Assembly: GCF_988243305.1 (NCBI RefSeq)
Contig: NZ_OZ547136.1
Strand: one strand, 5' to 3'
Length of the DNA: 64,000 nt
Both the position numbers and the translations under genes were made by a program. Shown here one piece after another: positions 39,998 through 42,484 of the stretch; within the stretch, counting starts at the first letter, position 1, and each line of letters begins with the position of its first letter. The notes below the pieces were generated by a model, which ran no database searches, was not told the DNA's origin, and was given only the letters and a program-made list of their open reading frames with translations.

Positions 39998-42484
39998 TTA
40001 CGCAAACTCAACCAGTTTCGTACGTTTGTTCGTAATGTCCGCCCGGGTGATGAACTGGATGTCCCGGCACAAGTTAGTGAAAAAAATTTAACCCCGCCGC
40101 CGGGTAACAGCAGTGGCAACCTTGAGCAACAGATAGCCAGTACTTCACAGCTAATTGGATCTCTGCTCGCCGAAGATATGAACAGCGAGCAAGCGGCAAA
40201 CATAGCACGTGGATGGGCCTCTTCTCAGGCTTCAGGGGTAATGACAGACTGGTTAAGCCGCTTCGGTACCGCAAGAATCACGCTGGGCGTGGATGAAGAT
40301 TTCAGCCTGAAGAACTCCCGTGACGGCAACCCTCGAAAATGGCGATTCGATGCAACAAACAGTGAACTATGTGCCGAACGTCACGAATGCTGAAATCACG
40401 CTGGCAGCCTCGAAGGACCCGGTGATTGCCGACAATAACGATCTCACGACACTAACAGCACCGTCGCTGATACAGAGGGCAATGCGATAGCCAACACTGA
40501 GGTAACATTTACTCTACCGGAAGATGTGAAGGCGAACTTCACGCTGAGCGATGGCGACAAAGCGGTTACTGATGCCGATGGCAAAGCGAAAGTCACGCTG
40601 AAAGGTACAAAAGCAGGCGCTCATACCGTGACAGCATCGATGGTTGGCGGTAAGAGTGAGCAGTTGGTGGTGAACTTTACTGCGGATACGCTCACTACGC
40701 AGGTTAATCTTAACGTTACCGAGGACAATTTCATCGCCAATAACATTGGAATGACCAGGCTACAGGCAACAGTGACTGATGGAAACGGCAACCCAGTAGA
40801 AGGTATAAAAGTTAATTTCCGTGGAACCTCCGTCACGCTAAGCAGCACCAGCGTTGAAACGGATGATCAGGTTTTCGCTGAAATTCTTGTGACAAGCACC
40901 GAGGTCGGACTAAAAACAGTTTCAGCCTCTCTGGCAGATAAACCTACTGAAGTCATCTCGCGATTACTGAATGCCAAGGTAGATGTTAATTCTGCGACGA
41001 TTACCAGTCAGGAGATACCTGAAGGTCAGGTCATGGTCGCACAAGACATAGCAGTTAAAGCTCACGTTAACGACCAGTTTGGCAACCCGGTGACGCATCA
41101 ACCCGCGACATTCAGTGCAGCGCCATCCTCGCAAATGATCATCAGCCAGAATACGGTCTCTACTAATACGCAGGGAGTAGCCGAGGTCACCATGACGCCT
41201 GAAAGAAACGGCTCGTATACTGTAAAAGCATCCCTAGCGAATGGAGCTTCACTTGAGAAACAACTGGAGGCTATTGATGAAAAACTGACACTCACGTCCA
41301 GTCCGCTTATCGGTGTCAATGCTCCTAAAGGCGCTACTCTGACGGCAATGCTAACCTCTGCAAATGGCACTCCAGTGGAGGGTCAGGTCATCAACTTTAG
41401 CGTAACGCTAGAAGGTGCGACGTTAAGTGGCGGAAAAGTGAGAACCAACTCTTCAGGTCAGGCTCCAGTCGTTCTGACCAGCAATAAAGTCGGTACATAT
41501 ACGGTGACTGCATCGTTCCATAACGGCGTCACAATACAGACACAGACAACCGTGAAGGTTACTGGCAACCCAAGCACCGCACATGTTGCTAGCTTTATCG
41601 CTGAACCGTCGACTATCGCCGCCACCAACAGTGATTTAAGTACCTTAAAGGCAACGGTTGAGGATGGCAGTGGTAACCTGATCGAAGGTCTCACTGTGTA
41701 CTTCGCCTTAAAAAACGGCTCCACCACATTAACGTCATTAACAGCGGTGACCGATCAAAACGGAATCGCGACAACAAGCGTGAAAGGAGCGATAACGGGG
41801 AGCGTCACTGTAAGCACAGTCACAAGCGCAGGTGGAATGCAAACAGTAGATATATCGCTAGTGGCAGGCCCAGCAGACGCCTCGCAGTCCATCCTTAAGA
41901 ACAACCAGTCATCACTGAAAGGGGACTTTACCGATAGTGCTGAGCTACATCTTGTTCTGCACGATATATCAGGCAATCCGATCAAAGTTTCTGAAGGGAT
42001 GGAATTTGTGCAATCAGGTACAAACGTGCCCTATATGAAAATTAGCGCAATTGATTACACTCAAAATATCAACGGTGATTACAAAGCTACTGTTACAGGA
42101 GACGGAGAGGGTATCGCAACGCTGATCCCCGTATTGAATGGTGTTCATCAGGCGGGCCTGAGTACCACGATAGAATTCATTAGCGCGGAAACCAGACCAA
42201 TGACGGGTACAGTGTCAGTGAATAGTGCAAACCTACCGACAGCTTCATTCCCTTCGCAGGGATTTACCGGGGCGTATTATCAGTTGAATAATGACAACTT
42301 TGCACCAGGAAAAACGGCGGCTGATTATTCGTTTTCAAGCTCGGCCTCCTGGGTAGGCGTTGATGCTACTGGTAAAGTGACATTCAAAAATGACGGTGAT
42401 AGCAATACAGTAATAATCACAGCGCCCCCAAGATCCGGTGGTGCTATTTACCAAACAGTTCCTCCTGAATCGCGTTCGGTGTGA
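39998..42484 (+). pseudogene. yeeJ: remnant of inverse-autotransporter adhesin gene (N-terminal truncation, internal deletion, frameshift)
   Basis: 39998-40318 encodes an N-terminal passenger-anchor piece (LRKLNQFRTF...WLSRFGTARITLGVDEDFSLKNS); an out-of-frame junction near 40318 joins to Big_1-type Ig repeats (EITLAASKDPVIADNNDLTTLTA), which shift by 1 bp near 40468 into the 652-aa ORF 40526-42484. Confidence 0.75.

Follow-up and report, generated by a model that had tools for sequence, protein, structure and literature searches.

The DNA at positions 39997-42484 of the 64,000-nucleotide stretch analyzed here (contig NZ_OZ547136.1 of assembly GCF_988243305.1; hereafter, the window) is very probably the dead relic of yeeJ, an inverse-autotransporter adhesin gene that was destroyed incidentally in the fixation of the yersiniabactin High-Pathogenicity Island (HPI) at asnT. 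Judged from its sequence, the remnant is a non-functional pseudogene from which no adhesin can be made, and both a 652-aa open reading frame (ORF) within it and a chimeric ORF at its upstream end are to be read as accidents of decay. Nucleotide alignment to the intact K-12 gene, the check recommended along with the original prediction of a reduced yeeJ, placed the deletion endpoints and a frameshifting indel to the base (Table 1). That prediction was essentially right, each of its elements lying no more than about 10 nt from the position given for it, and it was incomplete rather than wrong: it did not include a 3' deletion, the loss of a 312-bp repeat, a 9-bp deletion, the fusion to a gene of an integrative conjugative element (ICE) or the frame shared by the first and last pieces of yeeJ, and it drew no link between the 5' truncation and the known right-border deletion of the HPI.

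Table 1. Features of the asnT-HPI-yeeJ region, in window coordinates
Feature	Coordinates	Strand	Correspondence or basis
asnT tRNA-Asn	8468..8543	+	ARAGORN; HPI integration site, left junction
HPI, common immobilized E. coli type	8545..39996	.	Segment between two K-12 homology blocks
fyuA, yersiniabactin receptor, last intact HPI gene	36969..38990	+	673-aa ORF; annotated in 042, CFT073, MLI109
ICE gene, 5' third (codons 1 to ~117 of a 309-aa hypothetical protein)	39642..39996	+	Alignment to the ICE-type HPI of AMR2684 (sequence L003, 5873-6799)
yeeJ piece A	39997..40319	+	K-12 yeeJ nt 219-550 (aa 74-183); blastn, 92.8%
yeeJ piece B	40320..40459	+	K-12 yeeJ nt 4243-4382 (aa 1415-1461); frame +1 relative to piece A
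yeeJ piece C	40460..42456	+	K-12 yeeJ nt 4384-6677 minus 312 bp; frame of piece A restored
Junction of one lost Ig repeat (Big_1), in frame	40765..40794	+	Overlapping blast HSPs
3' junction (AAAC-A-GTTCC) and former yeeJ-yeeL intergenic DNA	42457..42484	+	Comparison with AST217 and K-12

The asnT locus and the right border of the island

Homology and gene order identify the window as the E. coli asnT locus carrying the HPI. By blastn against K-12, homology stops at 8544, one base past asnT, and resumes at 39997; records matching the intervening stretch carry annotated ybt, irp and fyuA genes. The island, ~31.5 kb long, corresponds to the left part of an ICE, the right part and attR being deleted. 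It is without the ICE conjugation and mobilization module and ends inside the first gene past fyuA. A search for the 17-bp asn direct repeat (CCAGTCAGAGGAGCCAA, allowing up to 3 mismatches) detected no right-hand copy at the right end of the island and matched only the four asn tRNA genes. At the right border, 587 bp of K-12 backbone are missing (blastn against K-12). Position at asnT, a missing right repeat, deleted backbone and an absent conjugation module, all marks of an immobilized HPI, were thus found together.

K-12 has yeeJ (7020 nt, 2339 aa) between asnT and yeeL, and the remnant therefore fills the place where yeeJ is expected. The order in the window, asnT-HPI-remnant-yeeL-shiA-amn, is the same as the K-12 order asnT-yeeJ-yeeL-shiA, and shiA, amn, yeeN and the other three asn tRNA genes follow further downstream as they do in K-12. 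Its position between asnT and yeeL-shiA and its nucleotide sequence thus both identify the remnant as the yeeJ locus. The neighboring yeeL gene (glycosyltransferase family 9; 42612-43727, minus strand) is an intact ORF in the window and in other HPI-positive strains, and is annotated as a pseudogene in K-12 (b4497). Further along, the record of strain MLI109 is annotated past cobU (2011075-2019000) with degraded IS110, ISL3, IS3 and IS4 fragments together with gene fragments related to gamma-glutamyltransferase and phosphotriesterase; this patch is assumed, from the 100% match at 39000-42700, to correspond to about 55600-64000 of the window.

The N-terminal secretion region had been predicted to be missing upstream of 39998, and this was borne out. 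Homology to yeeJ begins at 39997, at nt 219 of the K-12 gene, all DNA upstream of this point is HPI, and yeeJ is left without its promoter, its signal peptide and one half of LysM. In the ICE-type HPI of AMR2684, located at asnV, an AlpA-family gene, genes for VirB type IV secretion and mobC come after the 309-aa gene. In the window, the same gene is cut by the right-border deletion, and what is left of it is joined in frame to codon 74 of yeeJ (...IIDTPL/LRKLNQFRTF...). Within the island, the spacer 3' of fyuA is ~209 bp shorter than in AMR2684; two alignments to AMR2684 overlap by 14 nt at 39275-39288, which suggests a small repeat-mediated deletion, and several short indels of other strains cluster at 39275-39286.

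The fusion creates a chimeric ORF made of the first ~117 codons of the ICE gene, yeeJ aa 74-183 and an out-of-frame tail. This ORF is 249 aa long and intact in the B2 strains CFT073 and ST131, is also open in 08_3323, and measures 236 aa in 042. Poly-A indel columns of the alignment place frameshifts in the window copy at an A8 run (39647-39654) and an A7 run (39740-39746), and the MLI109 copy is likewise frameshifted at two poly-A runs. PGAP annotates the chimeric ORF as a valid "inverse autotransporter beta domain-containing protein" (e.g., WP_000039786.1 and WP_001323489.1), and a 236- to 249-aa PGAP protein of this kind, corresponding to 39642-40393 of the window, is present in thousands of RefSeq genomes. 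The PGAP models in CFT073, 042, ST131 and other strains cover exactly the coordinates described here, and the "beta domain" model is wrongly marked as valid, the ORF being a chimera. In the B2 strains, the fusion unites the N-terminus of the ICE protein with a YeeJ segment comprising half a LysM domain and the initial strands of the beta-barrel; it is a highly speculative idea that, if transcribed from the promoter of the ICE gene, it could be a new small protein with some activity.

Architecture of the yeeJ remnant

Alignment of the remnant to K-12 yeeJ by blastn yielded three collinear blocks with 92-95% identity. The first, piece A, encodes the distal half of the LysM domain, a linker and ~60 residues from the start of the beta-barrel; at 40032/40033 it has lost 9 bp without a change of frame. 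The second block (40320/21-40794; K-12 nt 4243/44-4718) is 94.9% identical with one 1-bp gap, and the third (40765-42441; K-12 nt 5001-6677) is 92% identical. Two intact alleles served as references, the 7020-nt gene of K-12 and the 8007-nt long allele of AST217. Both are mosaic relative to the remnant, and all breakpoints are stated against these two alleles, as none was found that matched the remnant's ancestor exactly.

As predicted, an N-terminal piece ending in ...FSLKNS (encoded at 40301-40318) is joined out of frame to sequence encoding Ig repeats, with a multi-kilobase deletion between them. The junction, expected near 40318, lies at 40319/40320 and is blunt (...AAGAACTCCC/GTGACGGC...), and the G at 40320 agrees with the long AST217 allele. 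Relative to K-12 the internal deletion is 3692 bp long, relative to AST217 4598 bp; since both lengths are 2 modulo 3, the join is out of frame. The single-base shift that had been proposed near 40468 is present at 40459/40460, ~8 nt upstream of that position. Here K-12 and AST217 read CAGCAACAG and the window reads CAGCACCG, a change of AA to A without a long homopolymer.

By tblastn, the three pieces lie in frames 2, 3 and 2. The two frame breaks total 3693 bp, and pieces A and C therefore share one frame. Translation in this frame nevertheless meets a TGA at 40391-40393, within the shifted stretch between them, which blocks read-through, and a further stop stands at 40488-40490. The notion that the 3692-bp and 1-bp deletions form a compensating pair restoring a fused protein is ruled out by this TGA, and also by strain HH97, which has the large deletion without the small one.

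Five Big_1/Invasin_D3 Ig-like repeats and Invasin_D4 are encoded in piece C, which also takes in most of the 652-aa ORF (40526-42484). The GTG on which this ORF begins corresponds, in intact YeeJ, to a Val inside ...TFTLPEDVKANFTLS..., in agreement with the prediction that it serves as a start only because of the frame break. One Ig repeat has been lost from this region, amounting to 312 bp (~104 aa) against K-12 and 315 bp against AST217, and the 30-nt alignment overlap at the junction includes an 11-nt identity, AACGGCAACCC. This loss may reflect unequal recombination, or it may be mere allelic variation in repeat number.

At the 3' end, a deletion has taken the last ~113 codons, which encode the C-type lectin domain, along with the native stop; the TGA that closes the 652-aa ORF is consequently former intergenic DNA. 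Against AST217, position 42456 is followed by one filler base, A, and then by 42458, with a loss of 762 bp that comprises the last ~112 codons and 426 bp of spacer. Against K-12 the loss is 453 bp. The last ~300 nt of the remnant are 94-98% identical to AST217 and 75-92% to K-12, and the junction was fixed against AST217, K-12 being a poor reference for these ~300 nt (75-79%). A Pfam comparison placed the Intimin_C match of K-12 YeeJ at aa 2246-2315, beyond the last retained residue (~2226).

The domain losses were assessed with Pfam profiles. Piece A matches only positions 3-64 of the 279-position IAT_beta profile (PF11924), which K-12 YeeJ matches at positions 2-279. The 652-aa ORF contains five Big_1 stretches (E 1e-68), Invasin_D3 and Invasin_D4, and the full domain set was present in K-12 YeeJ only. 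The remnant retains neither the signal peptide, the barrel nor the lectin domain, and it has lost half of LysM and about nine Ig domains. Of the features of a type Ve inverse autotransporter, the Big_1/Invasin_D3 Ig-like passenger repeats are retained, and a signal peptide, a complete 12-stranded IAT_beta barrel and a continuous frame are not. Without a signal peptide and membrane anchor, any translated product would be unsecretable. The remnant resembles K-12 yeeJ (b1978) and the long UMN026-type variant in its position, in its three blocks of 92-95% identity and in its Big_1/Invasin_D3 passenger; it differs from the K-12 gene in lacking aa 1-73, aa 184-1414, one ~104-aa repeat and the last ~113 aa, and in being frameshifted.

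Distribution and decay of the remnant among E. coli genomes

The 3.7-kb segment at 39000-42700 was covered over at least 80% of its length in 2036 of 5426 complete genomes, and 1974 records matched it with at least 99% identity. A 1-kb probe from the right end of the HPI was found in 2228 of the 5426 genomes, and yeeJ nt 219-550 alone were kept in about 2200; the asnT-yeeJ spacer with the 5' 1.2 kb of yeeJ was kept in 2861. The remnant architecture is thus common to about 2040-2080 of the 5426 complete genomes, or ~40% of sequenced E. coli. Seven copies of the common type were aligned (the window, MLI109, 042, EC14, CFT073, ST131 and 08_3323), and an eighth, from HH97 (NZ_CP116409.1), was checked base by base. 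All seven common-type copies have every junction and the 1-bp deletion, and each large junction is identical in all eight, down to the odd 3' filler base. These identical blunt junctions, with the same filler base in every copy, rule out independent recurrent deletions.

The same distribution bears on the idea that collapsed Ig repeats and a base-calling indel merely mimic a deletion and a frameshift. The gene is repetitive, and some yeeJ frameshifts may indeed be assembly errors (PMC5595812). Here, however, the same junctions and 1-bp deletion recur in about 2000 complete genomes, sequenced in many laboratories and on many platforms, the seven aligned common-type copies agree, the internal junction runs from the unique beta-barrel region into an Ig repeat rather than from one repeat into another, and the 1-bp site is a change of AA to A outside any long homopolymer. 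A sequencing or assembly artefact is accordingly so improbable as to be negligible.

The HH97 remnant is diverged (97% identical) and shares the 5', internal, repeat and 3' junctions and the filler A with the common type. It is without the 9-bp and 1-bp deletions. Since HH97 has the large deletions without these two, the large ones are older and of single origin, and the small lesions arose afterwards, as decay. Just to the left of the 3' junction, HH97 resembles K-12 and the window resembles AST217, a difference that probably reflects later recombination inside the remnant. HH97 itself (sequence L012, 976-2999 and 3648-6471) represents a rare, diverged HPI lineage with a frameshifted fyuA.

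Decay of the 652-aa ORF has continued along separate lines. A TGA at 41786 is present in ST131 and 08_3323, a TAA at 41993 in CFT073, ST131 and HH97, and a 1-bp deletion at 42332 in EC14. The ORF has thus been interrupted independently in five of the eight copies (CFT073, ST131, 08_3323, EC14 and HH97) and is open in the window, MLI109 and 042. It has accumulated 22 non-synonymous and 15 synonymous changes, giving a pN/pS of ~0.48, a value that rests on 37 changes in seven sequences, some of which are probably recombination imports.

These observations allow a further reading to be weighed, in which the remnant is a natural short allele and either the 652-aa ORF or the chimeric ORF functions as a gene in some new capacity other than adhesion. 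Three copies have an open 652-aa ORF, the chimeric ORF is open, at 249 aa, in CFT073, ST131 and 08_3323, and the pN/pS is below 1. Against this, the 652-aa ORF begins at an internal Val, has no signal peptide, beta-barrel or native stop, and is broken in most copies, and the window and MLI109 carry frameshifts in the chimeric ORF. Scans found promoter-like sites no more often than by chance, and likewise no terminators above chance. PGAP, moreover, marks the Ig part as a pseudogene ("Ig-like domain-containing protein") in every copy inspected. The prediction had named an intact reference of the same architecture with a continuous reading frame as the observation that would speak against a remnant; no natural short yeeJ allele with a continuous frame was found among the 5426 complete genomes, the frames run 2/3/2 with two intervening stops, and the intact alleles are the full-length genes of K-12 and AST217. 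We therefore consider a short functional allele very unlikely. The view that the 652-aa ORF should not be taken for a standalone adhesin gene is upheld by its missing signal peptide, the barrel stub, the interruptions and the PGAP pseudogene call.

Proposed history and relation to earlier reports

From the junctions, reading frames, domain losses, population distribution, order of lesions and later decay observed directly above, the following history is proposed. An HPI in ICE form, the presumed ancestor, would have integrated at asnT, directly upstream of an intact yeeJ. One illegitimate deletion, probably a single event, would then have run from codon ~117 of the ICE gene to codon 73 of yeeJ, taking with it an excisionase-like gene, the conjugation module, attR and the asnT-yeeJ spacer; it would have immobilized the island and deprived yeeJ of its promoter, its signal peptide and half of its LysM domain. 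The blunt 3692-bp deletion would have taken out the beta-barrel together with about nine Ig domains, the lectin domain would have gone with the 3' deletion, and a single Ig repeat would also have been lost. All of the large deletions would predate the split between the rare HH97 type and the common type, with the 9-bp and 1-bp deletions and several nonsense mutations arising afterwards. The whole block would have spread in E. coli with the HPI through homologous recombination of flanking DNA.

Schubert et al. 2009 (PMC2606025) reported that all asnT-located HPIs have a unique deletion at the fyuA border affecting the neighboring backbone, that this deletion removes the direct repeat and fixes the island, that the island spread together with flanking DNA by recombination, and that the ICE-type HPI of ECOR31 at asnV is undeleted. 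Martinez-Gil et al. 2017 (PMC5595812) described many strains with a truncated yeeJ linked to asnT and the HPI, and treated CFT073 as yeeJ negative.

Within this history, we infer that yeeJ was lost by hitch-hiking with the HPI and not through selection against the gene. A pathoadaptive loss, in which inactivation of YeeJ was selected in HPI-carrying, often extraintestinal pathogenic, lineages, would fit with the several separate lesions in one gene, with the finding that intact yeeJ occurs mostly in phylogroup A (PMC5595812) and with the presence of the remnant in about 40% of genomes. However, lesions that follow the loss of promoter and signal peptide are neutral, and multiple hits are therefore expected. 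Intact yeeJ is, in addition, barely expressed, its deletion in K-12 gave no adherence phenotype (PMC5595812), and linkage to the strongly selected HPI accounts for the frequency (PMC2606025). Adaptive inactivation thus appears quite unlikely, and hitch-hiking is the reading retained.

The right border of the window carries the same kind of deletion as that described by Schubert et al., whose progenitor is of the ECOR31/ICEEc1 ICE type: the island is at asnT, the repeat is absent, the backbone is affected, the pattern recurs in nearly all HPI-positive strains, and the ICE-type HPI continues where that of the window stops. The present analysis adds the endpoints at base level, the breakpoint inside a 309-aa ICE gene and the in-frame fusion of that gene to yeeJ codon 74. 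The scar itself is already known, and there is no new biology here beyond the two earlier reports.

For practical purposes, neither the 652-aa ORF nor the ORF annotated as an "inverse autotransporter beta domain-containing protein" should be counted as an adhesin or virulence gene in HPI-positive E. coli. The common junctions cleanly mark both the single origin of the immobilized HPI and its spread with flanking DNA, and the small later lesions allow events to be ordered relative to one another. Separately from the activity of the B2 fusion considered above, and just as speculatively, the decay series could serve as a relative clock of the spread of the HPI through E. coli. In AMR2684 (NZ_AP050512.1; sequence L004, 15429-31812), the ICE-type HPI at asnV also has anti-phage cargo between the mobilization genes and ldtA, including CBASS with DncV, Hachiman (HamA and a helicase) and others.
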